Below the pieces are notes generated by a model that was not told the DNA's origin, searched no databases, and saw only the letters and a list, made by a program, of their open reading frames with translations. The position numbers and the translations under genes are program-made. Positions 1 through 30,921 of a stretch of DNA of 30,921 nucleotides are shown here, piece by piece. The first letter of the stretch is position 1; the number at the start of each line of letters is the position of its first letter. Source of the DNA: a virus; the IMG/VR virus record IMGVR_UViG_3300045988_097310, positions 1 through 30,921 of that record. The stretch is one strand, 5' to 3'.

Positions 1-55
1 AAACAAGATTTACTTGTAAGTGGAACTAATATCAAAACAATCAATAGTCAGTCTT
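1..55. repeat. 55-nt terminal overlap, identical to 30867-30921 (circular closure of the contig)
   Basis: I compared the two ends base by base and they match exactly. The fiber reading frame is preserved across the junction. Confidence 0.9.
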
Positions 56-678
56 TACTTGGAGAAGGTAATATAGAAATTGAAAGTGGCTCTAATATTC
101 CATTTCTATTTATAAATTCCATTACTCATCTTTCTGGAGATTTCGCTGCTGTTAAGAATGCTATAGCTAATAAAACACCATTTGAGCTTTATTATGTAAA
201 TATTCTAGGTTATGGTGATATAGCAGCTCCAGAAGTATGTTTTGTTTCAGGAGAAAATATTCAAGCTACTTTCCATTTTGAAAGTACTACAGCTAATCAT
301 ACTGTAGTTCAAACTACTATTACTCCAACTGGAGTATCAGCAGATACTAGTTATCATAGTTATCAGGAGCAATTAGTCTCTGGGACTAATATAAAGACTA
401 TTAATGGTGAAAGTATTTTAGGAGAAGGTAATCTTGAAATATCTGGTAGTGGAGGGACTACCGATTATACTCAGTTAACAAATAAACCTCAGATTAATTC
501 TGTTGAGTTATCTGGCAATAAGAGTTTATCAGATTTAGGTATTCAGCCTGCTGGAAACTATATTGAAGCTGGAACTGGAACCCAACCTCAAATAAATACT
601 ATTACTGTTCTAACTCAATCAGAGTATGATGGTTTATCAACTAAAGATCCTAATACACAATATTTAATTGTAGAATAA
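1..678 (+). CDS. Tail fiber-like protein, 3' part of a gene that wraps the contig junction (start at 29409; about 711 aa in total)
   Basis: Frame 1 is open from base 1 to TAA at 676-678. It is in phase with the open frame 29409-30921 once the 55-nt terminal overlap is removed. It carries repeated (L)VSGTNIKTIN..S.LGEGN motifs and a fiber-like C-terminus (TQSEYDGLSTKDPNTQYLIVE). Confidence 0.75.
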   Translation, partial: KQDLLVSGTNIKTINSQSLLGEGNIEIESGSNIPFLFINSITHLSGDFAAVKNAIANKTPFELYYVNILGYGDIAAPEVCFVSGENIQATFHFESTTANHTVVQTTITPTGVSADTSYHSYQEQLVSGTNIKTINGESILGEGNLEISGSGGTTDYTQLTNKPQINSVELSGNKSLSDLGIQPAGNYIEAGTGTQPQINTITVLTQSEYDGLSTKDPNTQYLIVE

Positions 679-679
679 T

Positions 680-1801
680 ATGAATATTAGAGATGGTTTA
701 AAAACATTTTATGTAGGTGACAGACAAGGTACTGCTATTTATATTGGCAGTACCAAAGTCTGGCCTATCAATCCTTGTAATCCACAAATAGTTACAGTTG
801 CTAATCCAGTTCCTCAAGGCACTACAATAGTTGATCCTTGTAGTTATGTATTTAGCAGTTATGATGGAACTATAAATGATATACAAAGGGATTGAATGGG
901 TAGAGGATCTGGCCTTACTTCTACAGTAATTAGTTTTACTGCTGATTTAAGTGAATTAGCCCTTAATATAGATGGTGTACCTCTTTGTAGTATTATAGGT
1001 TCTGCTCAAACATATGCAGATGTAAAGTTAAATAGTGGAGATTTAAGTAGAAAAGGAGGGTTTTTTAAAACATCTCATTTTGATCTAAATAACCAGGAGA
1101 TTACTAATCTTAATGAAGCATATGGAAGATGGTATAGTGAATCTCAATTTTTGGGTCAAACAATACATAGTGCTACTTTATCTAATGTTAAAATACCTAC
1201 AACTACTAAAGAAGTAAGTGCAAATTATTTATTTATTGGAGTAGAAATAGATAATAATGATTTCTCTGTAATGAATAATTTTCAAAATCTTGTATTAGTA
1301 GATCCAAAATGGGCATTTGCAGAGACAGCTGATGGAGCTACTAATATAGATAATATAACGATTAATATTCCATTTAAAGGAGATTGTAATCATATGTTTC
1401 ATAGAGCATTATATCTAACAACTATTCCAAGTAATTTTACCTTTACTGGAATTACAGATATAAGCTATATGTTTAGTACTTGTAGTAGATTAACAGCTAC
1501 ACCAGAAATAGATTGCCATCTTGTTACAGATTGTACTAGTTTTGCTGCAAATTGTCCAGAATTAGTAACTGTAGGAGCTTTAAATGGATTAGGAGAGAGT
1601 TTAACTAAAGGAGGAGTTCTTTATTTTGCACAATCTCCAAATTTATCTACAGATTCATTACAAAATATAGCAGAATCTATTGGCACAGCAGTAAGTTCTA
1701 ATACAAGTATATCATTCAAATCTACTGCATATGATAAATTAACAGATGAACAGAAATCATTAATCGCTTCAAAGAATTGGAGCATAAATCGAGTTGCATA
1801 A
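680..1801 (+). CDS. Fiber/receptor-binding candidate with DUF285 (BspA-like) repeats; track ORFs 680-895 and 896-1801 fuse through TGA 893-895
   Basis: Both track ORFs share one frame and are separated only by TGA. The sequence has DUF285-like repeats (NHMFHRALYLTTIP, ISYMFSTCSRLTATPEI, CTSFAANCPELVTV). The C-terminus EQKSLIASKNWSI is paralogous to the end of 2698-3717. Confidence 0.7.
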
Positions 1802-1803
1802 TT

Positions 1804-2040
1804 ATGAAAATTGAAATTAAAGAAAAATATAAAGTAGTTAGTCCAGAAGAAGGTTATGTACTTACTAACTATAAAGAAGGAATGGATATTAAATTATACA
1901 GTTCATTTACTGAATGTATCTGTCCTTTAAGTTGCGATTTAGAGCATCTATCAGAAGTCTCTTTAGATAAGGATGCTGAATATAAAGAGTTAGCTATTAA
2001 AGCTTCTAAAGAGTATGAGGAATCAATAAAAGTTAGATAA
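1804..2040 (+). CDS. Hypothetical small protein (78 aa) in the fiber cassette
   Basis: ATG at 1804 follows the upstream stop closely, and the frame is open to TAA at 2038-2040. I recognised no motif. Confidence 0.5.
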   Translation: MKIEIKEKYKVVSPEEGYVLTNYKEGMDIKLYSSFTECICPLSCDLEHLSEVSLDKDAEYKELAIKASKEYEESIKVR

Positions 2041-2042
2041 TT

Positions 2043-2697: not shown

Positions 2698-3717
2698 ATG
2701 GCAAATACAATTTCTGATAAATTAACGTATCTTGAAGGTACTAAGAGTGCCATTAAAGATGCTATTGTAGCTAAAGGTGTTGCTGTATCAGATTCAGATA
2801 CCTTTAGAAGCTATGCAGATAAGATAGGACAGATTTCTGGAGGTGGTGGAGGAAAGGTTAATTTAAATGATTATGGATTAACACTTGCATTTTCTAATAT
2901 GTCACAAGAACAATATGATAATGTTACATATTCATTTGATGATACTAGTTCTACAAAATGATTTTTTCAAGACGCAAATTTAAATGGTATAACAATAAAT
3001 TTAAATAGTCTATTTAATATTTTGAATTATAATTTAGAGTATACTTTTTATCAAATTAAATGTTCTGATATTTTATTTCCAGCAGAAATATATTGTAGTA
3101 ATGCTAACTTTGCTTTTTATAATACTCAAATACAAGACAGTTCTCCAATAATTCAAAAATTTATTATTGAAGAGAATGGTAATTCTAGTTTTACCAGTAC
3201 TTTTGCATACTCTGTTATTAATGTAAATGAAATTGAGTTTAATAGTTCTAGATCAAGTTGTTCAATTCATATGTCTAGTATGTTTAATGGAGTTCAAAAA
3301 GATAGAGTGACAATATTGCCAACTATGAAATTTAATATTACGGGTAATGTAATTAATATGGAAATAGGAGGATTCTACGAACAATTACCTGATAATATAA
3401 CTGAACTTCCTGAATGAGATGTTACAAGTATAAGTGCAGCAGGACAAAACTTTTCTAATTGGCCATTTTATAGCTGATCTTCCAATAATACTTATATAAC
3501 TGATATGGGAGGAATAGTAGGGTTAAAAACGTATTTAGATTTAAGTAAACTGCCAAGTCTTAATTCTTTGGCTATTGATAATATTCTAAATAAAGCTGCT
3601 GATTTAACTGGAGAAGTGCCTCAAACTATTACATTTGCAGCAGATGTTTATAATGCACTTACTGAAGAACAGAAATCATTAGCTACATCTAAAAACTGAA
3701 CTTTAGCATCAGCATAA
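2698..3717 (+). CDS. Second DUF285/BspA-like receptor-binding candidate; three track ORFs plus linkers fuse through four in-frame TGAs
   Basis: ORFs 2698-2961, 3022-3417 and 3505-3699 share one frame. The TGAs are at 2959, 3415, 3475 and 3697, and the true stop is TAA at 3715-3717. TGA 3415 yields the DUF285-type LPE-W-DVTSI motif. TGA 3697 (SKN-W-TL) aligns with TGG 1778-1780 (SKN-W-SI) in the paralog. Confidence 0.75.
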
Positions 3718-3721: not shown

Positions 3722-3771
3722 TGTCAGTTTTTATTTTTTCTTAGTACTTTGAGTGAGTAAAAAACTTGACA
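3722..3771 (+). repeat. Copy 1 of a conserved 50-nt imperfect palindrome (TGTCA-N40-TGACA) ending in the invariant 17-mer GAGTAAAAAACTTGACA (3755-3771)
   Basis: The 17-mer is identical in all four copies (3755, 11219, 17382, 25928). Length and flanking half-sites are conserved. The copy is intergenic. Confidence 0.85.
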
Positions 3772-3864: not shown

Positions 3865-4530
3865 ATGCAAAGTGGAACAATTTATAAAATAACTAATTTA
3901 ATAAACAATAAGATTTATATTGGAAAAACCACCAGAGATATTAAGCGTAGGTTCATTGAGCATAAACTGAAAGCAAAATCTGGTTTGGATTATCATTTAA
4001 GTCGAGCTATTAGGAAATATGGAGATAAAAATTTTATTATCGAAGCTATACAGGTATTTTGTTGTACCTCAGAAAGTTTATTAAATAGAAAATTAGATGA
4101 AGCTGAAAAGAAATATATTAATTTATTTAATTCTAAAATAAATGGATATAATATGACAGATGGAGGAGATGGTGGATTTGGACATATAATAACTGAGGAA
4201 ACGAGAAAAAGATTGTCTGAAGCAAAAAGAGGGGAAAAGAATCCAAATTACGGTAAACATACTAGTAATTATTGTAGATCTGGAGAATTTCATCCTTTAT
4301 ATGGAAAATCAAGAAGTGAGGAATGTAAACAAGCTATGAAAGAAGCTTGAAAGACTAGGCCAAATCCCAAATATAAATATATTCTCAGATACTCTTTAGA
4401 TGGAAAACTAATTAAAAAATATAGTCGAATTAGAGAGCTAGAAGACGAATTTACAAGAAGTGGTGTATATAATGCTTTAAGAGGCATAATTCCCACATAT
4501 AAAAAATATATTTGAAAATATGAATTATAG
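3865..4530 (+). CDS. GIY-YIG homing endonuclease (I-TevI-like) with a C-terminal NUMOD/IENR-type DNA-binding tail
   Basis: N-terminus GTIYKITNLINNKIYIGKT...RRFIEH...RAIRKYG is a GIY-YIG core. In-frame TGAs lie at 4348 and 4513. The second gives the family-typical ending KKYI-W-KYEL. The stop is TAG at 4528-4530. Confidence 0.85.
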
Positions 4531-4906
4531 TCTTGTTCTTCAGCATACTGTAACAAAACAAATTTATATTTATAATTTAAATAATCAGAATTATTCTGAA
4601 AATATATATTATAAATTTGATATAACGTTAGATGATAATACACCAGATGGAGAGTATCAGTATGTATTATTTTATAACCCAAATAAATGGGAAATCGTCA
4701 TAGACCCAAATAACATATATCAAGATCAGTACAATAGCTATGTATTAGTCACCTATGATAATATATTAACTACAAATACTAAAATTCTGATAGCTGGAAA
4801 ACCTATTCCAATTCTTAGTACTGGTTTAATTAGAATTGGGGATTATGAAAATCAAAGATACCAATATGATAGACAAAATCAATATATAAGCTATGAAAGA
4901 AAATAA
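4520..4906 (+). CDS. Hypothetical protein (128 aa) upstream of the portal gene
   Basis: Intact ORF that overlaps the upstream stop and the portal start. I recognised no family. Confidence 0.55.
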   Translation: MNYSLVLQHTVTKQIYIYNLNNQNYSENIYYKFDITLDDNTPDGEYQYVLFYNPNKWEIVIDPNNIYQDQYNSYVLVTYDNILTTNTKILIAGKPIPILSTGLIRIGDYENQRYQYDRQNQYISYERK

Positions 4907-5981
4907 AATAAAATCAAATCTAAAACTCTCAGCCATAGATCCTTTCATTCAATCTAACATCGTTCTTCCAACGGAAACAAGGAAAAGAGGTTCTGATATG
5001 ATAATGTGAGGAGAAGATAACAAATATCCATTATATCTATGGGATTTATATTTAAATGTTGCTACTCTCCAATCTATTATTAATGGTTCTGCTGACTTTA
5101 TTGTTGGTAATGATGTTAAATGTAATGCTCCAGGATTTGAGGTAGTTGTAAACAAGAAAGGTGAAACAATAGTTGATATAATGAGAAAAATCACTATTGA
5201 TAAGATGATATTTGGAGGTTATGCTATCCAAGTAATTAGAGATATGCTTGGAAGAGTTGCAGAGATCTATCATATTGATTTTATGAATGTAAGGTCGAGT
5301 GAAAAGAATGATGTATTATATTATGCAACTGATTGGACAGCTTGGTCTGTAAAAGCTATAAAATATCCAAAATTTGGAGCTGGGGATGAAAATCCAGCTA
5401 GTATATTTTATAATAAAGGTTATATAACAAGAGGAGTATATCCTATTCCTGTTTATGGGGCTGCTATTTTATCTTGCGAAACTGAGAAAAATATTAATGA
5501 ATTCCATTTAAATAACATCAATAATGGATTTATGGGTAATCTTATTATTAACTTTAATAATGGGGAACCTACAGATGAAATTAGAGAGGAGATTGAGAGG
5601 AATATTAATGAGAAGTTCTCTGGTTATCAGAATGCTGGCAGAATATTGATTTCATATAATGCAGATGAGGCAAATAAGACTACTATTGAAAGATTAGATT
5701 CTGATGATTTTGATGAGAAATATCAATCATTATCTGAGAGAACCAGAGATCAAATATTCTGTGCCTTCAGAGCTAATCCTAACTTATTTGGAATTAACTC
5801 AGATTCAACTGGTTTTAATGAGCAAGAATTTGAATCTTCATTCAAGCTTTATAATAGAACTATGATTAGACCTATTCAGAAAGAGATTTGTGATTCATTT
5901 GATAAGATCTTTGGAATGCAGAATTCAATCACAATTTCACCATTTAGCCTTAATGAAGCTGATACTAAACAAGTTGAATAA
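4893..5981 (+). CDS. Portal protein
   Basis: ATG 4893 is in frame with track ORF 5181-5981, and the only interruption is TGA 5007-5009 (MIM-W-GEDNKYPLYLWDLY). Length (362 aa), position and the portal-like N-terminal region (QSIINGSADFIVGNDV) fit a portal. Confidence 0.75.
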
Positions 5982-6664
5982 TGGAAAATAATTATAGAAA
6001 TGTACTATTAATATCTGAAGATTATATAAAATCAGAATCTAATCTAGACAATAATGTTTCTGGTAAATATCTTCAGTCAGCAATTAAACTTGCACAAGAT
6101 ATTGAGCTTCAGTCATTAATTGGAACTAAGCTCTTAGAAAAGATTCAGAAATTAGTAATTGATTGAAAAGATCCAAATAAACCAGTTCATCCAATAGAAC
6201 CTCCTATTTATGATCCTACTTCAATAGATGACCCAGAAAATCATAGATATAAAGAATTGCTAGATTACTATATTCAGCCTTATTTACTTTATCAAGTATT
6301 AAGTGAGATTACTATACCCATCTCATTTAAGCTGAGTAATTTTGGGGTTATGAGGACTGATGATGAGAAAGATTTAACTTCTGATATTAGCCAAGTTAAT
6401 CTTATTAAGAAATATTATAGAGATAAAGCAGATTTCTTTAAAACGAGATTACAAAATTGGGTAATTACATATTATAATGATTTTCCTGAATTGTATTCTT
6501 ATAAACCTCTTAAAGATATGTATCCAAATATGTATTCAAGTTCATCTTGTACTATTTGGTTAGGTGGAGCTAGAGGTAAAGGTTGGAGATATAATTCTTG
6601 TGAAGGTCCTCTGCAAAGAGCTTATGATTTCCCTTCAAGTGATAACAATAAAAAGAGTAAGTAA
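5981..6664 (+). CDS. Head-tail connector-like protein (gp6-like); track ORFs 5981-6166 and 6257-6664 fuse through TGA 6164-6166
   Basis: Both ORFs share one frame and the linker has no TAA or TAG. The N-terminus (YLQSAIKLAQDIELQSLIGTKLLEKI) resembles connector/adaptor proteins. Confidence 0.6.
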
Positions 6665-6665: not shown

Positions 6666-7091
6666 ATGACGTATTTTGAATTAATAAACAATTTAAAAGC
6701 TTGTGCTCTTGAAGAACCCAATATTAATTTTGTAGGAAGTAAGGATATATATGAACTTAATAGTATCCCAACTATTGAATATAATGTATTTTATATAACT
6801 CCAAATACATTTAATATGGATGAGGATACTATTACTTACTCTTTAAATCTCTATTTTATAGCAAGATGGGATGAGACTGATAATAATCAGCTTGAAGAGC
6901 AATCAGCTGGAATATTAGCATTAACTAATATAATTAACCGATTTAATAACCAATATCCAGAAGTTGATATTTCTTATCCTTTAATTTTTACTCCATTTTA
7001 TCAGAAGTTCAAAGATATTTGTACTGGAGTATTTGTTAGAGTTGATTTAGCTGTAGACAATACTCTGGGTACTTGTTCTGATAATATGTAA
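6666..7091 (+). CDS. Hypothetical structural (neck or tail-completion) protein
   Basis: ATG 6666 lies directly after the upstream stop and is in frame with track ORF 6564-7091. The gene sits in the head-tail joining neighbourhood. Confidence 0.55.
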   Translation: MTYFELINNLKACALEEPNINFVGSKDIYELNSIPTIEYNVFYITPNTFNMDEDTITYSLNLYFIARWDETDNNQLEEQSAGILALTNIINRFNNQYPEVDISYPLIFTPFYQKFKDICTGVFVRVDLAVDNTLGTCSDNM

Positions 7092-7747
7092 TGGAAAATA
7101 AATTAAACTGGTTTGGAAAGGTATTAGAATGAGTAGATAAATATGGATTACTAAAGATATTTAAAGCAGGGATTGGATTAATATTTATATCCTATGTAAT
7201 GGTTATTACACTTAATCCCTCTATTGTTTATAATAAGGTTGTAACCTATATTGAACAAACTCACAATTCTAAAACTATTGCAAGAAATGAAGCAACTTTG
7301 AAGATTAAATATAAGCTTAAAGAATTGCTTCAAAGTACCAATGCTGATAGAGCTTGGGTTATTGAATATCATAATGGAACTACTGGATTAGGAGGACTTC
7401 CATTTACCTATGGAGTAATGAATGCAGAGGAAGTAAAACCAGGAATAAGACCTGTAAGTAGCCATTATAAAGATTTCCTGTTATCTGACTATACTTCAAT
7501 TATAGAGTTTTCTAAGAATGATGGATGGTTTGGTAATATAGATAGTTTAGAAGCAGATGATCCAAGATTATATTATGCATTTAAATCCAACAGAGTGAAT
7601 GAAATAGCAGTATTTTATTTAAAGACTGAGGATAAAGATATTGGCATTTTAGGTTTATCATTCTGTGATACACCTATGCCTTATGATACTTGAGTACATC
7701 TAAGAAGAGCTGGAATACAGATAAGTATAATTTTAAATAAAATATAA
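7091..7747 (+). CDS. Membrane-anchored protein (218 aa), first gene of the putative lysis cassette
   Basis: ATG 7091 overlaps the upstream TAA. TGAs at 7130 (VLE-W-VDKYG) and 7691 (YDT-W-VHL) are in frame. A hydrophobic helix (LLKIFKAGIGLIFISYVMVITL) lies near the N-terminus. The stop is TAA at 7745-7747. Confidence 0.6.
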
Positions 7748-7748: not shown

Positions 7749-7910
7749 ATGAAATATTGGTTAAAATATGTAATTGCAGTAGTTATTATTCTGCTGATAT
7801 GTTTACTAATTAAAGTAATTCCTTTTTGGATTACTGTAGTATTACTTGTAATAGGTGTAGCTTCACATCTATTTTATAGATACGTTATGATTAAAGATGT
7901 ACTTAAATAA
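7749..7910 (+). CDS. Small two-TM protein (53 aa), holin candidate (too short for the ORF track)
   Basis: Translation is MKYWLKYVIAVVIILLICLLIKVIPFWITVVLLVIGVASHLFYRYVMIKDVLK. It has two hydrophobic segments and a charged tail. It lies immediately upstream of the endolysin with a TAATG overlap. Confidence 0.5.
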   Translation: MKYWLKYVIAVVIILLICLLIKVIPFWITVVLLVIGVASHLFYRYVMIKDVLK

Positions 7911-8362
7911 TGAAGTATTTCACACTCGAAGAATTAACAAGATCTGATACTGCTTCAATTAAGCATATAGATAACACTCCAGATGAGAGTATAACAGAGC
8001 ACCTGATAGAGTTGGTCGAGAAGCTTTTAGACCCAATAAGAGAGAGATGGGCAAAGTATTGTGATGACAATCAGCTTGGTAACGCAGGCATCAGGATTTC
8101 CTCTGGTTTTAGAAATAAGGAGCTTAATAAAGCAGTAGGAGGATCTTCAACTTCTGCTCATTTAACAGGGTATGCAGCAGATATATCTCCAATTAATGGT
8201 AATATGAAAGTATTCCAAAGTTGGATTGCTGAAGCTATTGAAGAATTTGATTTCGACCAGTTGATATATGAAAGGCCTAGGAATGGTATAGCAAGTTGAA
8301 TACACTTGGGATTAAAGAATAAAGACGGGATGCAAAGACGACAGAAATTTACTATTATATAA
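7910..8362 (+). CDS. Endolysin, zinc peptidase M15 (VanY / D-Ala-D-Ala carboxypeptidase-like)
   Basis: Carries SGFR, the metal motif SAHLTGYAADI (H..G.A.D) and GIAS-W-IHLG. The W of the conserved SWIH motif is encoded by TGA 8297-8299. The stop is TAA at 8360-8362. Confidence 0.85.
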
Positions 8363-20133: not shown

Positions 20134-23100
20134 ATGAGAAAGAATATTAAACTATTTATTGCAAATAAAGAGGTTGACTGTAGTGAGGGAATTAGTCTTC
20201 CTATGACATATACTGTTGAGGATTTCCAAAACCCCACTATAGTCAAGAACTCGTTTAGTAAAACGATTTCTATACCTGGCACAAAGAATAATAATAAGAT
20301 TTTTGGAGAGATTTATAAGTTAGATAGATTTCTCCATATAAAAGAAGGTAATTTCTCTGGAGTATATTTTGATCCTTCAAAACGAGTTGATTTTGGAATT
20401 TATAATAATGGCTATTTAGTTGAATCTGGATATATGCAATTAAATAGCATATCTATAAAACAAGCTGTCATTACTTATAATATTACTTTATATGGAGGAT
20501 TAGGAGATTTCTTCTATGGACTTAAATATAAAGAAGATGGTACTATTAGGACTCTTGCTGATTTACAATACTTTGTAACTGATGAAGATGGGAATACACT
20601 TCCTGCTGATACTGAACTTAATTTTTATATTAACAAAGATTTTGTAAATACTTGTTTTGACTGAAGTAAAACGAATGAAGGAAGTCAAATATATGATTAT
20701 TTGACATTTATTCCAGCATATAATGGTTTATATGAAGATTTTGATAATGAAAGTTGTTTAATAAATACTAATGAAAATAGTATATTTCCTACTAGTAAGA
20801 CAGATTCAGGAGTTACATATACACCTTATAATGGATATGGATTAGCTAAATTAAATAGAGCATATACAGAATGGGAGATGAGAGATCTTAGAAGTTATAT
20901 GCAGAGGCCAGCTTTAAAATTGAGTAAGTTAATTGAAACTATCTGTAGAAAAGAGAATTCTGGATATGATGTAGTATTTGATCCTTCATTTTTTAATTGA
21001 AATAATCCGTATTGAAGTAAATCCTTTGTAGCTTTACCTTTATTATCTAATCTAGTAAGTGACGAAGCAGATGTAACAGAATCTGGCTTTTTAGTAGAAG
21101 ATAGTAAATATAATTATCAGGTAGGTATAAATAAAGGAGAATCTACATCAAGTCCTTTAAAATTATCCATTGCATCACCTGATATTGTTTACGATTCTGG
21201 AATAATTGATTTAAGTGAGGCTGGATTTAGAAAAAGCCTTTCTACAACTTTTTATTTTAAGTTAAAGTTTAATCGAACTGCAGGAAATGTTGGGGATAGA
21301 TATTTTTTTGGATTTAGAAGGTATTTTAGCTCCTCTGCTCCTCCTTTTTATTCAGCATATAGAGGATACGCTGATGTTTGGCTAACAATTACTAATGAAG
21401 TAGATGATACTATTTATACTTCTGAAATACATAGATTTACAAATTCAGGAACCTACTCACATCCTATAGCTAATGGGGTTAATCATTTTGGGTATTTTCA
21501 AAATAATGTATTTTATGATACTTCTTCATTAACTAATGATTTTGTTATTAATATTACAAATTTTAAAATTCCAATTAATAAAATTAAAATTAAACTTAAT
21601 GTTGTATGATCTACTGGAAATAGTGTTAGACCTACTGGATTATTAAGTGAAGTAATAGAAAGAGGAGAGGATTACCAAGCTATTCCAAAAGGAGATCTTA
21701 TAGTAGATCTTACTTCTCCCATTGAAATTACTACTTCTACAGAGGTACTTCAAAGTAATGCATTATTAACTAAAAAATTATTATTAAAAACAGAACAATC
21801 TCCTGCTGATTACTTATTGAGTTATGCAAAACTATTTGGGTTATATTTTACAAAAGATATTGATAGTAAAACAATTAGAATATATACTAGAAATAATTTC
21901 TTTAAGAATATAATCTCTGATTGGAGTAAGAGAATAGATTATTCTAAAGATTTCAATGTAAATCCAATATTATTTGATAAGAAGTGATATAGAATGAGTT
22001 CTGAAGGTCCAGAAACTTATTTTTATAAAAAATACAATAAGGAATATTCTATATTATATGGTCAACAAAGATTAAATACTGGTTATAATTTTAATTCTGA
22101 AACAACTGAACTGTATAGTGATAATATATATGAAAATATAGTTTCTGCAAGATGGAGAAATAAATATTTTAGAAATTTTTACAATTCTTCTTCCCTTGTA
22201 GTTCCTGCATTTATGAATGATAATATTACCTATACATTATTTAATAATAGCACTACTGAACTTAAGACTATAGATCAAGAGTTATACGGAGCTAATTTTA
22301 TAGATCCCTCTAAAACCACAGAATGATATAAAATCGCAGGTAATGATATATTTGCCAAAAATGTATTTTTCTCAATTGATGGTAATGAGGAATCTTTAGA
22401 GGATATCTCTCAATCCCTAGTATTCTTTAACGGTAATGTTCCTTTAACTGATGTAAAAGGAAATGAAGTAACATATTGAATTACAGATGATCTTACAGAA
22501 ATGAACATATTAAATGATCAGGAAATGTGTTATATATCTACTAAAAGTGAGAAAGATATTAGGGGGAATAAAATTGCTATAAAGAGAACTGTATTACCTC
22601 AATTTACAAGGTATACCGTTTCGTCCTCTAATGTTACTGCTTCTTGAGATTTTGGATTACCACAAGAGATTTATATTGATGATATAACTTATAATATCGG
22701 AAGTACTATTTATAGTAGATTCTGGAGTGAATTTTATAATGATCAATTTGATGTAAATACTAAAAAAGTTACCTGCTTTGTAAGATTGGATGATTTAGAT
22801 GTTAAGTATGATTTACTTAGACAGTTCTATTATTTTGAAGATTCTTACTGGGTACTTAATAAGATTGATGCTTATGATATTAATTCAGATTCTACAGTTA
22901 GATGTGAATTTATTAAAGTTCAAGATATTAATAGTTATTTAGCTGGAATTCAAAATTTAGGTGAGTATATATCATTTGACGATTCAGATCCAGTTGTAGA
23001 TTATAAAGCTGGGACTAAAAAGATTACAGTTACTTCTAATATTCCTTGAGAATTAGGATGATATAGTCCAAATGAAATTGTAAGCATTACACCTGAATCT

Positions 23101-23493
23101 GGGCAGCCTGGAGAAACAGAATTGACAGTTACATATAATGAGAATACTACATATAATCAAAGGAGTTTCTATTTTAGTCTTTATAAACAAGGAAGTATAA
23201 ATGGCCCTCAATGTATGTTTACTCAAACTCCAGACCCAAATAAAGCTATTCTTATTACAGGAAAGCTTCAAACTTCTACTGGAGGTATTCCTTCTGGCGT
23301 TAATCAGATTCTAACTGAAAATGATAATTTCTTAAATGTCACTTATATGAGAGATGATGGAAGTTATAGAATATATGCTCAAAATGGAGTTCAATTTTTA
23401 TTTAGAGTATCTGACGGACCAACAGGAACAGTTAAATATACAGAGAATTTAACACTAACAGAAGATACTGTTAAAAACGTAACTATAAACTAA
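20134..23493 (+). CDS. Very large tail hub / receptor-binding protein (1119 aa) with a C-terminal BACON-like domain
   Basis: Five track ORFs share one frame. I hand-translated the gaps 21001-21993 and 22327-22785 and found no TAA or TAG, including a stretch of about 198 codons with no Met. There are ten in-frame TGAs (20662, 20998, 21013, 21607, 21985, 22324, 22477, 22645, 23047, 23059). NIP-W-ELG-W-YSPNEIVSITPESGQPGETELTVTYNENTTYNQRSFYFSL is BACON-like. Confidence 0.7.
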
Positions 23494-23494: not shown

Positions 23495-25828
23495 ATGGCT
23501 GAAGAAATTAAAAAAGTAATTAGTGTAGATACTAAAACCAGTTCAAAGTCGATCAAGCAGCTACGAGAAGAAGTAGCTGGCTTGACGGCTGAACTTGAAG
23601 ATCTTGAGATTGGTAGTACTGACTATACTAAAAAGCTTGAAGAACTTGTTAATGTTCAAAATAAGTTAGGTGTTGCTACAGAATCTATGCAAGGTAAAAC
23701 TGTAAATGCAGTTAAGGCGTTTGACAGTATAAATCAAGTAGCAGGAGGTTTAGCTGGAGGAGTTTCAGCTGTTAGTGCAGCATTCACTTTATTTGGAAAA
23801 GATACAGAGAATCTTCAAAAAACTATGGTTAAATTGCAAGCAGCAATTGCTATAGTTCAGGGAATTGGAGGATTAAAAGGTTTAGGTGAAGGTATTCTTA
23901 ATGGAGTAAAATCATTTAAAGCCTTATCTGTAGCAATGGGTGGTGCTACGGCTGCAACTGGAGGATTATCTGTAGCAATGGGTGTGCTACGGTCTGCAAT
24001 TATATCTACAGGAATTGGAGCTTTAGTTGTAGCTCTTGGTATGTTAATAGATTTTGCAATTAAAGCAGCATCAGGAATTGATGATTTAAAAATTAGTATT
24101 TCTGGTTTAAAAGATATAACTGATCAATGAGGAACAAGTTACTCCAGAGCTAATACTGAAATTGCAGGATTGGAGAGACAAAGAGAGAGAGATTTAGCTG
24201 CTGGTAAAAAAAGTGAAATACAAATTTGGAAAGATTATGCTGAAGCATTAGGAGATTTAGATGCTGAATTATTTCATCAATTTGGCAGTGTAACTAAAGC
24301 ATATTCTGACTCATTTACTAATATACTTAAAAGTAATAAATACTTCAAAAAAGAATTTAAGAAATCTGGATATGAAACTTGGGAAGATTATTCCAAAGCA
24401 ATACAATGAGGATTAAAGAATAGTTCTAATGAAGTTGATTTCTTTTTAAGTAAGTTAAATGAGGATCAAAAAGCGGCTTATGATGAAGCTTCTGGTATTT
24501 ATAATACATATCTTGAGAAGCGAAATGATTTAATGCAAAAATCTGCTGAAGCTTATGAAAAAGTTAAGTTAATGGAGATTGCTGCAGAACGTAAGCAGAG
24601 AGAAGATGCTAAAGCCCAGTATCTAAAGAATATAGAAGATAGAAAGAAACATAATCAAGATCTGCTTAAAGTTATTAACGATTTCTATGAAGAAAATAGG
24701 AAACTTCTTTTAGATGATGAAGCAAGAGAACTTGATGAATTAAATAGAAACTACCAGAATCAATTAGATGCACTTAAAGAAGCCTATAATCTCAAATTAA
24801 TAACAGTTAAAGAATATAATGAGAGATTAAAGCAGGTAAATGATGCATATAATAAAGAGTGACTAGATAATAATAATGAACGTTATAGAGAAGACTTAGA
24901 AAATAGATTATCTGCATTACAAGAAATGCAAGATAGGGAATCTCAATTATTTGCAAATAAAGAGGCTGCATTATCTGCAGGTAAATCTGGAAGTTATGAA
25001 ACTAGAGTTCAACAATTTGGTTCAACGGATTTTTATCAATCTGGAGAAGATGTTCAAAGACAATATCAAGATACATTAGCTTATAATGAACAGTTATATA
25101 ATCTCACTAAAGATAGAATTACAAGAGAGAATGAATTGATGTCTCAACAGCAAGCTATTTTAGATGAGCAATATAACAATAAGCTGATAACTGAACAAGA
25201 ATATGCCAATCAATCTCAAGCAATTAAATTACAGCAAGAAGCTAATGATATAGCTTTATCAGAAGCAGCTAATGCAAGAGAAGAAGCAGATCTTCAAGCA
25301 TTTAAAGATAGACAAGCTAAAAAGCAACAGGCTATTCAAGCTACTATGAATGTAGCTTCTTCTTTAAGTGGAGCTTTAGCTAATGTATTTAAACAAGAAG
25401 CTAGTGATGATTCAAAATCAGAGAAGCAAAGAGAGAAATCATTTAAAGTTTATAAAGCATTAGCTACTACTCAAGCTATTATTGATACTATCAGTTCTGC
25501 CCAAGGTGCATATAAAGCTATGGTGGGTATTCCATTTGTAGGACCTATTCTTGCTCCTATTGCAGCTGCTACTGCTGTTATAGCTGGTATTGCTAATGTA
25601 AAAGCTATCCAAAATGAGCAGCTTCCTTCATCTGGAGGTTCTGGAAGTGATGCAGGAACTACTGCTCCTGCTGCTTTAAATACAGCTCCTGTAGAATATA
25701 CTCGAAACTTACTTGGCAATAAAGAGACTGATGAATTGAATCAACCAGTTAAATGTTATGTAGTTGAGAGTGATATTACTACTGCTCAAACTAAAGTTGC
25801 AGTTACAGAATCAAATGCAAGTTTCTAA
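23495..25828 (+). CDS. Tape-measure-like or internal/ejection protein (777 aa)
   Basis: Four track ORFs share one frame and are joined through TGAs at 24128, 24407 and 24860. The protein has long coiled-coil Q/E/K-rich regions plus Gly/Ala-rich hydrophobic segments (GGLAGGVSAVSAAFTLFG, GIPFVGPILAPIAAATAVIAGIA). Confidence 0.65.
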
Positions 25829-25895: not shown

Positions 25896-25944
25896 TGTCA
25901 AAATTTATTTATCTTAGATACAAATTTGAGTAAAAAACTTGACA
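25896..25944 (+). repeat. Copy 4 of the palindromic element (49 nt; 17-mer at 25928-25944)
   Basis: Identical 17-mer and TGTCA/TGACA half-sites. It lies 79 nt upstream of the first capsid-module gene. Confidence 0.85.
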
Positions 25945-26023: not shown

Positions 26024-26614
26024 ATGGAAAAAATGTATAATGATCTTCCATTATATCAAGCAATTATTGCTGATGATTGTGATGGAATAGAGTTCGTAGC
26101 ATTGACCAGTAAACCTGCAACCCAAGTTAATTGGCTTGCTTTTGGGGAATCTCAGAAGTTCTCGATGGATGAAGAAAAACATATAGTTACTTCTTGTTTA
26201 ATGGTATGTGATATACCTATATTTAGACGGGATAGTAAAAACGGAGAATATTATATTCAATATGATAAAGAAACTCTCCGTTTAATGGCTGAAAAAATGA
26301 TGTATGATAAGAGAACTACTGATGTAAATATTGAACATTTGGAAGATTCAGTAATTCCTGGAATAATTCTTCAAGAACTATATATTAAAGATATAGATAG
26401 AGGAATTAATCCAGTTGAATTTGCTGATTGTCCAGATGGTTCATTATTTGCTACTTATAAAGTAAATAATCCTGTTATATGGGATGCAATTAAAGCTGGC
26501 AAGTTTAAAGGGTTCTCTATTGAGGGATTGTTTACTTTAGAAAGACAATCTGATGAATATGAGGAACTTAAAGAGATTCAAAAAATGTTGAGAAAAATAA
26601 AAAGAGTTAAATAG
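26024..26614 (+). CDS. XkdF-like (Peptidase_S78_2-type) prohead protease candidate
   Basis: Pattern VALTSKPATQVNWLAF...IEH...GSLFATYKVNNPVIWDAIKAGKFKGFSIEG resembles the XkdF family. First gene of the capsid module. No TGA. Confidence 0.65.
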   Translation: MEKMYNDLPLYQAIIADDCDGIEFVALTSKPATQVNWLAFGESQKFSMDEEKHIVTSCLMVCDIPIFRRDSKNGEYYIQYDKETLRLMAEKMMYDKRTTDVNIEHLEDSVIPGIILQELYIKDIDRGINPVEFADCPDGSLFATYKVNNPVIWDAIKAGKFKGFSIEGLFTLERQSDEYEELKEIQKMLRKIKRVK

Positions 26615-26615
26615 A

Positions 26616-27227
26616 ATGTATAGTGGAGTTATATATCTAGCAACAAATCTTATAAATGGCAATAAATATGTAGGACAAACAAATAATTTCTTGAGAAGAA
26701 AGAATGAACATAAATACAGTTCTAATCTTACATATTTTCATAGAGCGATTAGGAAATATGGATTCAATAACTTTAAATGGGAAATTCTTCAAATCTTTTG
26801 TTGTTCTTCTACAGAATTATTGAAAAGACAACTAAATAATGCAGAAATTAAATATATTCAGTTATTTGATACATTAAATAATGGTTATAATTTAAATGAA
26901 GGTGGAGGTTCTAATACTGGATTTAAACACAGTGAAGAATCTAAACACAAAATGTCTTTAAAACAGTCTGGAAGAGTATTAAAGGATGAAACAAAATTAA
27001 AGTTAAGAGAATGTAGATTAGGAACTAAACAAACTGAACAGCAGAAAGAAAAAGTAAGTAAACGTATAATTATGACAGATATTAATGATACTTATATATG
27101 CACTTGGAAATCTGCTATGGACGCTGAAAGAAACGGAAATTTTGATCATAGTGCTATTATAAAATGTTGCAAAAATAAACAAAACTATCATAAAAATTTT
27201 AAATTTAAGTATGAACAAATTAACTAA
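26616..27227 (+). CDS. GIY-YIG homing endonuclease, paralog of 3865-4530, free-standing inside the capsid module
   Basis: GVIYLATNLINGNKYVGQT...RRKNEH...RAIRKYG...NGYNLNEGG aligns with the 3865 gene along most of its length. No TGA. Confidence 0.85.
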   Translation: MYSGVIYLATNLINGNKYVGQTNNFLRRKNEHKYSSNLTYFHRAIRKYGFNNFKWEILQIFCCSSTELLKRQLNNAEIKYIQLFDTLNNGYNLNEGGGSNTGFKHSEESKHKMSLKQSGRVLKDETKLKLRECRLGTKQTEQQKEKVSKRIIMTDINDTYICTWKSAMDAERNGNFDHSAIIKCCKNKQNYHKNFKFKYEQIN

Positions 27228-27825
27228 ACTGAGAATCGAACTTAGTAAACTCTTAGCAAAATTTAACGATGTTAAGACTAGTGCTGGAGTTCTAACTTAC
27301 GATGGTAGTGAGGATGAGGATCTAAGGGCAGGTATGAGTGTATATACAATGGATACCGATACTGGCGAATATGCACCTGCTGCTGATGGTGAGTATGTTA
27401 CCGAAGATGGCAAAACGATTGTTGTTAAAGACGGTAAAGTAGAGTCCATTACTGATCCTAAAGCTGAGGTTGATCCTGAAGAGGGTATGAGAACTGTTGA
27501 GGTTGATGCTGCTTGTGGAACTAAGAAAGTAAAAGCTGAGGAAGTTACTGATCCTGCTGTTGAAACAGACGGTGTTAAAGAAACTGAGACTGATGCAATC
27601 GACGCTATTCATCGCGAAATTAATGAGCTTTACGATATTGTAGATAAGCTTGTTAAGAAAGTAGCAGAACTTGAAGGAAAATCAGAAGCTACTGAAAAGA
27701 CTGTAGAAAAAATGAGTAAGATGAGTGCTGCTTTTTCAGCAGAGGAAACACTTGAAAATAAAACAACTGCTCCTATAAGTGGGATAGCAGAAATAGATAG
27801 AAAGCTTAAAAACTTTATTGGTTAA
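27211..27825 (+). CDS. Scaffolding protein candidate
   Basis: Acidic, low-complexity and coiled-coil protein. It lies between the protease and the major capsid gene. Confidence 0.55.
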   Translation: MNKLTKLRIELSKLLAKFNDVKTSAGVLTYDGSEDEDLRAGMSVYTMDTDTGEYAPAADGEYVTEDGKTIVVKDGKVESITDPKAEVDPEEGMRTVEVDAACGTKKVKAEEVTDPAVETDGVKETETDAIDAIHREINELYDIVDKLVKKVAELEGKSEATEKTVEKMSKMSAAFSAEETLENKTTAPISGIAEIDRKLKNFIG

Positions 27826-27846
27826 TTTATAAAATTTTAAATAATT

Positions 27847-28752
27847 ATGGCAAATAGTCCTGTAATGACAACTCTTCCTGCTTATGTGGAGCAAAGACGT
27901 CTCCCTCTTATTAAGGAAGCGGTTTTAAAAGCTAAGAGTGCAAGTTTATTTAATCTTCAGACAGATATTAAAACTGATGCTGCTCTTAACCTGTTATCTA
28001 CCGATGTTCAGTTCGGTGATGGTCTTACTTGTGGTTGGGATGAGTCTGGAACTCAGACTCTTTCTCAGAGAATTCTTAAGACTGGTAATATTAAGATTAA
28101 TATGGCATATTGCGATAAGGCTATGCTGAAATACTGGACTCAGTATGCAGTTAAGGTAGCCGCTGGTCAGAAGACTCTTCCTTTTGAAGAGGATTTCGTA
28201 AATGCTGTTGTAGAGAACGTAAAAGAGGCTATTGAGATAGCTATCTGGCAGGGTGATACGGCTTCAGAAACTAATAACCTGAAGTATTTTGATGGTCTGT
28301 TAAAGATCCTTGGTGCTGCTGATGGTGTTGTTGATGTAACAATTGCTGGAACATCTGCCTATACTGACATTATGGCAGTTTATAATGCAATTCCTGAGAA
28401 GGTTCTTGATGGTGCTTCGATTCTTGTTGGTGCCGATATGTTCCGTAAGTTCGTAAATGAACTTGTTGAGAAGAACTATTTCCACTATAGCGGAGAGAGC
28501 CTTGATGGTGAGATTTATCTTCCTGGTTCACAGGTTAAGGTTATTGCTGTTAATGGTCTTAATGGAACTGATAAGATTGTTGCTGGTCAGTTAGACAAGA
28601 ATTTCTTCTATGGTGTAGATATGATGAACGATGAAGAGAAATTCGAATTGTGGTATTCACAGGATTTCAGAGAATTTAGATTAGCTATTGAATTTAACGC
28701 TGGTGTACAGGTTGCATTCCCTGACGAAGTAGTATTAGGTGCCAAGGCTTAA
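27847..28752 (+). CDS. Major capsid protein (HK97-fold type, 301 aa)
   Basis: Size, position after protease and scaffold, biased codon usage, and a strong terminator at the end of the operon. All four Trp are TGG. Confidence 0.75.
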   Translation: MANSPVMTTLPAYVEQRRLPLIKEAVLKAKSASLFNLQTDIKTDAALNLLSTDVQFGDGLTCGWDESGTQTLSQRILKTGNIKINMAYCDKAMLKYWTQYAVKVAAGQKTLPFEEDFVNAVVENVKEAIEIAIWQGDTASETNNLKYFDGLLKILGAADGVVDVTIAGTSAYTDIMAVYNAIPEKVLDGASILVGADMFRKFVNELVEKNYFHYSGESLDGEIYLPGSQVKVIAVNGLNGTDKIVAGQLDKNFFYGVDMMNDEEKFELWYSQDFREFRLAIEFNAGVQVAFPDEVVLGAKA

Positions 28753-28792
28753 TTTCAATAGATTTTATTAACTTCTAAATGATATTGAAATT

Positions 28793-29317
28793 ATGGCTTG
28801 TTTAATAACTATCGCAGGAATCACACTTGATTGCCAACCTTCATTGGGTGGAATCAAACAGGTATGGATTACCCAGTATGCAGATGTTAAAAGTGTAACG
28901 GTTGATCCTGAGAGCAATATGATTTCAGCTATTACTCTTGAGTCTTCAGCTAAATGGTATAACTACCAATTTAGAAAGGCTACTGGTTCTCTAACCTCAA
29001 CTTTAAATGTAGATGAAAGTGCTGGTGTTAATTATGTAAGTAATGAGCTTGCTCTTGTATTTACAAAGATGGAAACAGCAAAACGAGTAGAGATTGCAGC
29101 TTTATCAATTGGTCAGCTTGCAGTTGTTGTTGAAGATAGCAATGGTAAGTATTGGTTCTTAGGTAAAGATGATTATGTAAGCGCTTCCGCTGGTACGGGT
29201 GTTACTGGTACTGCTAAAGGTGATCAGAATGCTTATACTCTGACACTTTCAACAGATTCAGATTCTTATCCTTATGAGTTATCTGCAGAAGCTATCCAAA
29301 GCGTTGTAGGTGCTTAA
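28793..29317 (+). CDS. Tail tube-like (major tail) or head-decoration protein (174 aa)
   Basis: Follows the major capsid gene with the same codon bias. The pattern ...VVVEDSNGKYWFLGKDD...GTGVTGTAKGDQNAYTLTLS... resembles siphovirus tail-tube proteins. The assignment is tentative. Confidence 0.45.
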   Translation: MACLITIAGITLDCQPSLGGIKQVWITQYADVKSVTVDPESNMISAITLESSAKWYNYQFRKATGSLTSTLNVDESAGVNYVSNELALVFTKMETAKRVEIAALSIGQLAVVVEDSNGKYWFLGKDDYVSASAGTGVTGTAKGDQNAYTLTLSTDSDSYPYELSAEAIQSVVGA

Positions 29318-29328
29318 TAACAGAAAGA

Positions 29329-29365
29329 GGGGCGAGTATTAATTTACTTGCCCCTTATTTTGTTT
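29329..29365 (+). terminator. Rho-independent terminator ending the capsid operon
   Basis: GGGGCGAGTA / loop ttaatt / TACTTGCCCC (10 bp with one G-T pair) followed by TTATTTTGTTT. Confidence 0.75.
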
Positions 29366-29408
29366 ATATACCACATAATGAATAATTTATATTTTATAGA
29401 AAAATAAT

Positions 29409-30921
29409 ATGGCAAACGAAACTGAAAAGACAATTCTTCCCTATCTTAATGTCCTTGAAGTCGAAACAATAGATAAGTCAAATGTGACTAAAGTTATTGT
29501 TATTGACAAGGATGATGAAGTTAAGGTTATGGATGGTTCTCAGTTAGGATCAAGTAACTATCAAGATCTTCAATTTAAGCCTGAAATCAATGGGGTTGAA
29601 TTAAATGGAAATATTCCTTCTAAAGAATTAGGAATTCCTTCTATTGAAGATGTTGATAATCAGATTACTGAGAAACTAGCTGACTATCCAACTAAAGAAG
29701 AGGTAACTACAGAGATTACTGAAGCCACTGCTGGAAAGCAAAATACACTCGTTCAAGGTGACGGTATAGTAATTGAAGAGAATACTATTTCTGCAGATTA
29801 TAATACTATTCGTAACAAACCATCTTTAAATGGAACTGAATTATCTGGAGCAGCTTCAATAGTACCTGCCATTAATATTCAATCAGTCCCATCTAAAGTT
29901 ACTTTAGCTCCTGTATTTGGTAATCAAACTGGAGAAGCAGTTGAACTTCCAATATATAATACAGAGACTAATCAAGCTGGTATTGTTAATGGTCCTCTAT
30001 ATGCACAATTAGCAGATAAATATACTAAAGCTGAAATTGATGCTTTAAATACAGCTATTAATAAAGAGATAGCTTCAAAACAAGGAACGCTTACAGCAGG
30101 AAAGAATATATCTATTATAGATAATGTAATCTCTGCTTTTGAGAATCATTTCTTACTTAATTTAGATGAGAATGATCCTGTAAGACAGAAACATATCTAT
30201 GACTTTATTAGAACTAATCTGGACTTCTATTTATTCTGCCAGATTACATATAAAGGTGATATTATAGTTATTCCTGTTGCAACTATTGAGCATCCCGAAA
30301 CTATTGATTTATATGGCTATTATTTCCAAGATAATGGTGTATTAGTAGTTATTAATGCAATCTTAGTAAATAATGGTAATATGACTGTTAAAGTTACTGA
30401 GGTTGATCTTACTAATAAAGGTTATACTAAAGATGAAGTAGATGAGAAACTTGCAACTAAGCAAGGTGTATTTACTCCACAAGCTCCATTAGCTTTTAAT
30501 GAAGATAAATCCCAATTATCTGTAGATTTATCTGGATACCAACCAGTTGGTGATTATGCTTTAAAGAGTGATATTCCAACTAAAATTAGTGAGCTTACTA
30601 ATGATTCTAACTTTGTAAGTGAAGCAGAGGTTTCTGGAGATTTAGCAGGTAAAGCAGATAAGACTTATGTTGATGAGCAGCTTGCTACTAAACAGCCTGT
30701 AGGAGATTATGCAACAAAAACAGAACTTGCTGGTAAAGCTGATTCTTCTGTGGTAGAATCTCTATCTACTCAAGTAGCAACTAATACTTCAGACATATCA
30801 ATTATTAAAACAAAGCAAGAAGAAGATGGAAACAAGATTGATGCTCTTGATAAAGAGATGGCTACTAAACAAGATTTACTTGTAAGTGGAACTAATATCA
30901 AAACAATCAATAGTCAGTCTT
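29409..30921 (+). CDS. Tail fiber-like protein, 5' part (continues at base 1 after removing the 55-nt overlap)
   Basis: ATG 29409 opens a frame with no stop to the window end. It has periodic fiber repeats (LATKQPVGDYATKTELAGKADSS) and no TGA. Confidence 0.75.
   Translation, partial: MANETEKTILPYLNVLEVETIDKSNVTKVIVIDKDDEVKVMDGSQLGSSNYQDLQFKPEINGVELNGNIPSKELGIPSIEDVDNQITEKLADYPTKEEVTTEITEATAGKQNTLVQGDGIVIEENTISADYNTIRNKPSLNGTELSGAASIVPAINIQSVPSKVTLAPVFGNQTGEAVELPIYNTETNQAGIVNGPLYAQLADKYTKAEIDALNTAINKEIASKQGTLTAGKNISIIDNVISAFENHFLLNLDENDPVRQKHIYDFIRTNLDFYLFCQITYKGDIIVIPVATIEHPETIDLYGYYFQDNGVLVVINAILVNNGNMTVKVTEVDLTNKGYTKDEVDEKLATKQGVFTPQAPLAFNEDKSQLSVDLSGYQPVGDYALKSDIPTKISELTNDSNFVSEAEVSGDLAGKADKTYVDEQLATKQPVGDYATKTELAGKADSSVVESLSTQVATNTSDISIIKTKQEEDGNKIDALDKEMATKQDLLVSGTNIKTINSQS

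Follow-up and report, generated by a model that had tools for sequence, protein, structure and literature searches.

A gut phage genome in which TGA is a sense codon

The window analyzed here is the whole 30,921-nucleotide stretch of IMG/VR virus record IMGVR_UViG_3300045988_097310, a phage genome in which TGA is read as tryptophan (Trp). Translation table 4, and not table 25, is the correct one for calling its genes, a conclusion that we regard as close to certain. Table 4 describes how the phage is read; a table 4 host does not follow from it, and the evidence speaks rather against one. Taken as a whole, the results are best explained, with a probability of about 0.6, by a recoded gut phage that infects a standard-code host and depends on a decoder outside recognizable phage transfer RNAs (tRNAs).

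The last 55 bases of the window are an exact repeat of the first 55, and the record therefore represents the circular assembly of a complete genome of ~30.87 kb (~30,866 bp unique). With TGA as sense it contains 35 tightly packed genes and three small conserved open reading frames (ORFs) on the minus strand (8969-9415), at a coding density of 0.953. In-frame TGA occurs 47 times in 20 of the 35 genes (57%) and once more in sORFa, an ORF of 53 amino acids, while in-frame TAA and TAG each occur zero times. Genes end in TAA (29) or TAG (6) and none of the 35 in TGA; terminators across the clade were 142 TAA, 28 TAG, and 0 TGA. The sequence-only reading had counted about 50 sense TGAs by hand and held that no gene needs TGA as its terminator, both in agreement with these numbers, and every TGA coordinate and motif that it quoted was present. 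It had also proposed re-calling the genes with tables 4 and 11. When TGA was treated as sense, coverage by ORFs of at least 100 amino acids rose from 0.81 (table 11) to 0.945, compared with 0.82 in a control that treated TAG as sense, and the same jump was seen in every close relative. The in-frame TGA signal is far beyond chance. The genome and the features that carry in-frame TGA are as follows.

1-30921 (no strand): complete circular phage genome; 55-bp overlap; relatives 29-32 kb; guanine-plus-cytosine (GC) content 29.4%
680-1801 (+): g02, fiber/receptor-binding-protein-like, paralog of g05; TGA at 893, bona fide TGG at 1778 (SKN-W-SI)
2698-3717 (+): g05, paralog of g02; TGAs at 2959, 3415, 3475, 3697
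3865-4530 (+): g06, GIY-YIG plus NUMOD3 homing endonuclease (Pfam); TGAs at 4348, 4513
4893-5981 (+): g08, portal protein (Pfam Phage_portal); TGA at 5007
5981-6664 (+): g09 (DUF6712); TGA at 6164
7091-7747 (+): g11, membrane protein adjoining the lysin; TGAs at 7130, 7691
7910-8362 (+): g12, Peptidase_M15_3 peptidoglycan peptidase (endolysin; Pfam); TGA at 8297, W130 of the WxH motif
8362-8955 (+): g13, NUMOD1 homing-endonuclease-like; TGAs at 8677, 8734, 8917
9254-9415 (-): sORFa, 53 amino acids; in-frame TGA at 9350-9352
11398-11883 (-): g15, T5orf172 domain; TGAs at 11589, 11499, 11493 (first codon base, minus strand)
12275-14525 (+): g17-g22, where g18 and g21 are HNH/NUMOD endonucleases, g20 is a helix-turn-helix protein with a weak match to sigma-70 region 4, g22 is a membrane protein, and g19 has no Pfam or PHROG match; TGAs at 12347, 12762, 13179, 13471, 13580, 13843, 13978, 14188, 14280, 14319, 14361
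15295-16542 (+): g25, large terminase; TGA at 15853
17469-17948 (+): g27, structural protein; TGA at 17727
17951-20131 (+): g28, tail protein, 726 amino acids; TGAs at 18350, 18887, 19517
20134-23493 (+): g29, tail protein, 1119 amino acids; TGAs at 20662, 20998, 21013, 21607, 21985, 22324, 22477, 22645, 23047, 23059
23495-25828 (+): g30, tape-measure-like, 777 amino acids; TGAs at 24128, 24407, 24860

TGA encodes tryptophan

The terminase, the capsid protein, and the portal fragment of a relative served as search queries, and together with an exact look-up of the capsid protein they yielded about 100 related contigs; those with a stated origin are human-gut assemblies. The codons aligned to each Trp position were then determined by codon-level tblastn against these contigs, counting unique contexts. 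In recoded relatives, the 642 contexts at the window's TGA columns were TGA in 289 cases, TGG in 147, Tyr in 44, Leu in 20, Phe in 17, and Gly in 9, and the 1021 at its TGG columns were TGG in 634, TGA in 113, Tyr in 67, Phe in 63, and Gly in 10. The two codons therefore interchange freely and share one common substitution spectrum. A further 22 more distant relatives were treated as standard-code because reading TGA as sense added little or no long-ORF coverage in them, and the query was masked to X at TGA sites in order to avoid bias. These gave Trp 43 times, Tyr 14, and Gly 2 among 129 residues, with summed BLOSUM62 scores of +319 for W, +87 for Y, -11 for F, and -259 for G.

These counts also bear on the possibility that TGA encodes glycine (table 25), as it does in phages of Absconditabacteria and Gracilibacteria. 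A few TGA columns do align to Gly, mostly at W62 of g09 (6164), a column in an indel region where relatives have TGA 5 times, TGG 7 times, and elsewhere Gly or a gap. Gly nonetheless makes up only 1.4% of the TGA columns, a rate matching that of the genuine TGG columns; it is as rare in the masked standard-code comparison, and TGA exchanges with TGG rather than with GGN. With Trp far above every other residue and Gly at background, the codon is read as Trp and not Gly, and we consider the glycine assignment extremely improbable.

Individual genes tell the same story. Among standard-code relatives, Trp occupies the g27 column (W87, 17727) in 10 of 10 and the terminase column W187 in 4 of 5, while the portal column (5007) is W in 12 of 19 and Y in 7 of 19; in recoded relatives the g27 column is TGG 18 times and TGA once. 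The sequence-only reading had placed TGA on a conserved Trp in several family signatures. The aromatic-x-W endings at 4513, 8917, 13179, and 14188 are all present, and the C-terminal GG(Y/F)IW(K)(Y) motif has Trp in all standard-code relatives; positions 13978, 14188, and 13179 are likewise W in such relatives, with the HNH motif ENLE-W-CT at 13978 having Trp in 3 of 3. The paralog pair that it had cited as direct evidence, SKN-W with TGG at 1778 in g02 and TGA at 3697 in g05, is as described: relatives have TGA 13 times and TGG 3 times at 3697, and the standard-code relative L074 has W there. At 3415 the motif LPE-W-DVTS exists, but many relatives have Leu or Ile, so that this is not a conserved Trp, and the DUF285 label given to g05 and g02 found no match at E <= 10 in Pfam or E <= 0.05 in NCBIfam.

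Profile searches on the table 4 translations, another of its suggestions, recovered M15, HNH_3/NUMOD4, GIY-YIG, Terminase_6, and portal with scores above or near the Pfam cut-offs, but not DUF285. Pfam alignments cross five TGA positions: HNH_3 and NUMOD4 cross 13978, 13843, and 12762, the alignment on g15 (residues 2-109) runs over the TGA at residue 99, and Terminase_6N on g25 (residues 37-231) crosses residue 187. The paired TGAs ascribed to BACON-like domains (23047 and 23059; 18887) were located as described, but the domain itself reached only sub-threshold scores (BACON, 15.4 bits on g28, E = 0.019; BACON_2, 19.4 bits at the C-terminus of g29 over W972 and W976; cut-off 25).

For the lysin g12, the Pfam M15 alignment ends at residue 110, short of W130. 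The motif GIAS-W-IHLG is nonetheless present at 8297, the peptide spanning the TGA site reads NGIASWIHLGLK, W130 and H132 are nearly invariant in the family alignment, and the SxHxxGxAxD...WxH zinc-site motif is intact. A 52%-identical homolog on a standard-code contig of 52% GC has TGG as its W130 codon. Some database entries of the g12 family are named 'putative chitinase' or 'YcbK (DUF882)'. Pipelines that applied table 4 to these contigs contain the full proteins of 150, 726, and 1119 amino acids.

If the TGAs were instead true stops, the genes would be decayed or fragmented, the sequence or assembly would be in error, or rare programmed read-through would be at work. The table 11 pieces do look like ORFs, and public databases contain shortened products: many g12-family entries have 127 or 129 amino acids, and those of 129 end exactly at the TGA. 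Identical TGAs recur, however, across many independent assemblies and alternate with TGG at conserved Trp columns, and the pieces of a gene are always in the same frame. The three long ORFs obtained by read-through (1119, 777, and 726 amino acids) were confirmed, as was the piece at 21016-21606 that has neither stop nor Met (197 codons, where ~198 had been claimed). Portal, terminase, tail, and lysin genes, all essential, would be broken together, and in-frame TAA or TAG is absent. We give this explanation next to no weight and, on these sequence comparisons, treat glycine, pseudogenes, and assembly error as excluded.

At a few columns the Trp codon of recoded relatives is always TGA and never TGG, namely g12 W130 (8297), g11 W201 (7691), g28 W134 (18350), g15 11589 and 11493, g30 W212 (24128), and g02 W72 (893); the exceptions are a small number of relatives with a different residue or a gap. 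Most other Trp columns flip between TGA and TGG. Position 7691 in g11 is TGA in every close relative. Such columns could reflect an equilibrium under AT pressure or selection for TGA.

No recognizable tRNA in the genome or its clade

ARAGORN found zero tRNAs in the circularized genome and in 80 related loci, and an Rfam search at E <= 5 gave no tRNA-like match, only chance matches (snoR43, sraA). Relaxed and mitochondrial modes of ARAGORN did propose 'tRNAs', which were rejected as low-scoring and inside coding regions; those with a 'tca' anticodon were the reverse complement of in-frame TGAs or lay within g11. Release factor 1 (RF1), Trp-tRNA synthetase, and release factors in general were absent among the Pfam and domain matches of the genome's proteins, and an integrase was not found in the genome. 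Borges et al. (10.1101/2021.08.26.457843) detected a suppressor tRNA in only 35% of TGA-recoded phage genomes, so the missing-tRNA gap was already known; here the lack is shared by an entire clade of 31-kb genomes that has been sampled densely. Since neither the phage nor its relatives have a recognizable tRNA, the decoder would have to come from an unrecognized phage factor, the host, or a co-resident element. If the host is standard-code, the decoder, which must accept Trp, would have to compete for UGA with release factor 2 (RF2).

TGA use is uneven across genes

TGA makes up 40% of the Trp codons in the window (47 TGA vs. 70 TGG), whereas the A-ending member of the other A/G pairs (Lys, Glu, Gln, TTR-Leu, and AGR-Arg) makes up 71-88%. 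TGA is absent from the following genes, among others.

26024-29317 (+): TGA-free capsid module, consisting of g31 protease (S78_2), g32 GIY-YIG insert, g33 scaffold-like, g34 capsid, and g35
9434-11155 (-): g14, superfamily 2 helicase-like (DEYH motif), weak Helicase_C_2 match; 0 TGA, 5 TGG
29409-30920 plus 1-678 (+): g36 continuing as g01 over the circular junction, tail-fiber gene, 711 amino acids, Phage_tail_C match

The capsid module, the fiber, and g14 together have 0 TGA and 16 TGG vs. 47 and 54 in the rest (Fisher p = 1.7e-4, for a post hoc grouping); for head-morphogenesis and helicase-like genes the counts are 2 and 21 vs. 45 and 49 (p = 6e-4). Among unique clade orthologs, TGA/TGG counts were 0/175 for g34, 1/92 for g35, 0/29 for g33, 6/53 for g31, and 1/79 for g14, so TGA exclusion is a property of the clade and not of a single genome. 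The clade-wide TGA share is 10-16% in portal, g09, and g10, and 30-100% in tail, lysis, packaging, and homing-endonuclease genes. Joined gene g36/g01 has zero Trp codons in the window, and its orthologs in relatives have 19 TGA vs. 1 TGG. The claim of the sequence-only reading that TGA is Trp throughout the genome thus holds for the amino acid and for table 4, but not for 'throughout', as the capsid module, g14, and g36/g01 are without TGA.

The base following the codon (+4) showed no significant bias between TGA and TGG (p = 0.19). The capsid genes have the highest GC at third codon positions (GC3): the module (27001-30000) has a GC content of 0.35-0.39 and a GC3 of 0.31 (g34), compared with ~0.27-0.30 and 0.12-0.2 for the rest of the genome. 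Codon selection in strongly expressed genes would fit this, as would a separate origin of the module.

UGA decoding appears to be costly, TGA being used far less than AT pressure predicts. TGA would have been purged where protein demand is greatest (capsid, scaffold, protease, and g35) and from the helicase-like gene, whereas genes for tail, lysis, packaging, and homing-endonuclease proteins, of which few copies are needed, would tolerate it. Such a cost of decoding would appear to fit better than the timing model in the literature, by which the standard code is kept in early genes and late genes are recoded. Among the putative early or replication genes, g15, g17-g22, and sORFa carry TGA and g14 is TGA-free.

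A probable standard-code host

Megablast of 25 kb against GenBank phages gave zero matches, tblastn with the capsid protein gave zero matches to cultured phages, and the best terminase matches were below 30% identity. By these comparisons the genome belongs to an uncultured lineage without a close cultured relative, so that the host is not readable from relatives. Indirect signals nonetheless make it fairly probable that the host is walled, standard-code, and without Shine-Dalgarno use, and probably one of the Bacteroidales. The M15 peptidoglycan peptidase implies a host cell wall. Only 3 of 38 genes are preceded by a Shine-Dalgarno core, fewer than a background of 13% would give, and 0 of 19 genes in L074, compared with 36-77% in the Mycoplasma phage controls. 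The nearest cellular homologs of g12 (52% identical) lie in contractile-injection-system loci beside Mfa-like fimbrillin and HU-HIG genes, which, judged from these neighbors, is a Bacteroidales-type context. The sub-threshold BACON matches on g28 and g29 point in the same direction. A scan with the Bacteroidetes promoter consensus TTTG-N17-23-TAnnTTTG gave four sites, all of them intergenic and correctly oriented, pointing into g14, sORFa, and g16.

11299-11330 (-): Bacteroidetes-type promoter-like site, upstream of g14
11379-11409 (-): Bacteroidetes-type promoter-like site
9420-9451 (-): Bacteroidetes-type promoter-like site, upstream of sORFa
11960-11991 (+): Bacteroidetes-type promoter-like site, upstream of g16

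The host could instead be native to table 4, an unrecognized gut bacterium with UGA as Trp, no RF2, and a tRNA-Trp(UCA), whose code the phage simply mirrors, as phages of Mycoplasma and Spiroplasma mirror theirs. A complete 31-kb genome without tRNA, release factor, or Trp-tRNA synthetase, along with 80 related loci without tRNA, is what such a host would lead one to expect, as are TGA on both strands and in probable early genes, its absence as terminator, and the low GC (29%). As positive controls we used the Mycoplasma phages P1, MAV1, and phiMFV1 (GC 25-29%), which have true table 4 hosts. In these, TGA makes up 95%, 77%, and 87% of Trp codons, respectively, in line with their other A-ending pairs, and 82-93% of genes contain it, vs. 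40% of Trp codons and 57% of genes here. The capsid genes of the present clade are virtually devoid of TGA. Mycoplasmatales are wall-less whereas this phage has a peptidoglycan peptidase, the Shine-Dalgarno signal of the controls is missing, and close relatives are on the standard code. Two recent systematic surveys (10.64898/2025.12.01.691617; 10.64898/2026.05.24.727570) confine table 4 to the Mycoplasmatales, a few endosymbionts, two genera of Eggerthellaceae found in non-human hosts, and certain Patescibacteria. They list no common walled table 4 lineage of the human gut, whereas this phage abounds in human-gut assemblies. We therefore consider a native table 4 host, the main rival reading, possible but unlikely.

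Several points weigh against a recoded phage in a standard-code host. Without a phage tRNA, efficient reading of the 10 TGAs in the essential gene g29 in an RF2-containing cell would depend on a putative mechanism. No prophage context, host contig, or CRISPR link to a host was found. The number of promoter-like sites is not significant, being reached by 22 of 100 shuffles, and the BACON matches fall below threshold. The TGAs of g17-g22 and sORFa lie just 3′ of the host-type promoters in genes that are probably early; this is why the timing model fits poorly, and such TGAs are easier to explain if the cell already reads UGA. The capsid genes are late yet TGA-free, the opposite of what that model stresses. 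Finally, the naming of g34 as the major capsid protein rests on synteny, a weak PHROG match, and the database name of a 91%-identical homolog ('Major capsid protein' in nr), and an AlphaFold model from a shallow alignment reached a predicted local distance difference test score of 38.

Under the favored reading, that of a recoded phage in a standard-code host, a more far-reaching proposal can be put forward, which we hold to be rather improbable as it stands: an abundant clade of small gut phages would read UGA as Trp in RF2-containing, standard-code Bacteroidales without a tRNA, through an undescribed decoder coupled to a TGA dosage throttle. Candidates for this decoder would be a phage protein that disables RF2 or retunes the tRNA-Trp of the host, and a suppressor that comes from the host strain or from a co-resident phage. 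As a throttle, TGA would set high-copy, TGA-free capsid proteins apart from low-copy tail, lysis, and nuclease proteins.

Two candidate host links were rejected. The only two GTDB matches to the capsid protein (47-48%) are unusable as host evidence, both being on short contigs, from bins labelled 'Azospirillum sp. CAG:239' and 'Bacteroidaceae bacterium'. The 148,631-bp IMG/VR contig IMGVR_UViG_3300045988_175865 (L028/L068/L095) might have been a prophage in host DNA, but its flanks are further tail-fiber genes and its end repeats internal sequence. Where read, it holds phage sequence only; its end repeats tail-fiber sequence ~30 kb upstream, and the fiber genes differ between copies. A concatemer or a chimera of related genomes is therefore more probable than a prophage. 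The exact capsid protein is present in 168 collection blocks, every contig being shorter than 50 kb, and that look-up revealed no integrated copy.

Clade boundary and relation to known recoded phages

The recoding is limited to a close clade. Relative L073 (IMGVR_UViG_3300012662_000073; 71% capsid-protein identity, GC 0.35) gains coverage from 0.81 to 0.93 when TGA is sense. The closest standard-code sister L074 (syntenic; IMGVR_UViG_3300029905_000019; 67% identity, GC 0.28) does not, uses TGA at 2 of 27 stops, and is joined by all relatives at or below 67% in showing no gain. On these sequences the boundary is sharp and lies between 71% and 67% capsid-protein identity. Recoding would thus have arisen within a lineage whose more distant members keep the standard code, and its limitation to one clade, together with rare TGA stops in the sister, matches the proposed course of stop-codon depletion followed by capture.

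The genome is best read as a new member of the known TGA-to-Trp recoded gut phages, the 'code 4' phages of Borges et al. (10.1101/2021.08.26.457843), which include small clades (Garnet, Amethyst, and Topaz) as well as large ones (Agate and Jade). At the level of the class it shares with them the human gut, low GC, and in-frame TGA that aligns to Trp. Part of the genes are recoded (57% here, within the published 26-71%), with recoding in tail and lysis genes; there are close standard-code relatives with rare TGA stops, and a suppressor tRNA is missing, as in 65% of their TGA-recoded genomes (Borges et al.). It differs in that the tRNA is lacking from a whole clade and not a single genome, the late capsid, scaffold, and protease genes stay TGA-free, probable early genes carry TGA, and neither an integrase nor RF1 or Trp-tRNA synthetase was found.

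Phages of the crAss-like group infect Bacteroidales, have ~29% GC, no Shine-Dalgarno use, BACON-like tail domains, and genomes of ~100 kb. The present genome resembles them in its probable Bacteroidales host, GC, lack of Shine-Dalgarno sequences, block-wise recoded stops, and BACON-like tail-protein domains (sub-threshold here), but it is 31 kb in length, has no suppressor tRNA, and has hallmark genes without detectable homology to cultured phages. Block-wise reassignment of opal or amber stops in crAss-like Bacteroidales phages is reported in the Mgcod preprint (10.1101/2022.06.29.495998). The Mycoplasma phages P1, MAV1, and phiMFV1 likewise read TGA as Trp, terminate only in TAA or TAG, need no tRNA genes, and have a similar GC; unlike the window, they are TGA-dominant (77-95%) in nearly every gene, are enriched for Shine-Dalgarno sequences, and have no peptidoglycan hydrolase in their record annotation. 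Table 25 phages of Absconditabacteria also use in-frame TGA as sense, mirrored by a recoded host, but there TGA is Gly and ~90% of genes are recoded, as opposed to Trp here.

Other features of the genome

Recognized products are the portal (g08), the Peptidase_M15_3 lysin (g12), the large terminase (g25), an S78-type protease (g31), and the capsid protein (g34), to which the helicase-like g14 and three large tail proteins (726, 1119, and 777 amino acids) can be added. PHROGs and NCBIfam searches added almost no functions, and the PDB gave no useful match to g12, g14, or g34 in either sequence or profile searches. The genome has a heavy load of homing-endonuclease-type genes (g06, g13, g15, g18, g21, and g32), made up of two HNH/NUMOD, two GIY-YIG, one NUMOD1-only homing-endonuclease-like (g13), and one T5orf172. 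Gene g32 (26616-27227) lies between the protease and scaffold genes and is missing in several otherwise near-identical relatives (L100 and L101 vs. L102); it therefore looks like a mobile insertion.

The largest apparent intergenic gap (8969-9415) is filled by three small conserved ORFs, a block that lies 3′ of a Bacteroidetes-type promoter-like site and ends at a bidirectional terminator (8938-8966).

8969-9109 (-): small conserved ORF, 46 amino acids
9111-9251 (-): small conserved ORF, 46 amino acids
9254-9415 (-): small conserved ORF, 53 amino acids (sORFa)

A 17-mer, GAGTAAAAAACTTGACA, occurs in four exact plus-strand copies (3755-3771, 11219-11235, 17382-17398, and 25928-25944), where 0.26 are expected by chance. 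Each copy lies within a conserved element of ~50 bp that starts with TGTCA and so forms the inverted repeat TGTCA...TGACA, and three of the four have a hairpin 3′ of the element. No copy lies within a gene: three are found upstream of g06, g27, and g31, respectively, and the fourth separates g14 from g15. The element is a candidate phage-specific promoter or regulator site.

Implications

Recoding of TGA to Trp in gut phages is already established, and the phenomenon is not new. What is added here is a clade-wide lack of tRNA, a module-specific exclusion of TGA from capsid genes, and indirect signals of a standard-code Bacteroidales host. Table 11 mis-annotates a very common gut phage, cutting its lysin at 129 amino acids and leaving its 1119-residue tail protein in pieces, and table 4 should be used for calling its genes. 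The genome provides a compact, complete, and highly sampled test case for how recoded phages that lack a tRNA get a stop codon read, and its clade offers a 31-kb search space, a contrast in TGA use between capsid and tail or lysis genes, and a standard-code sister lineage for comparison.

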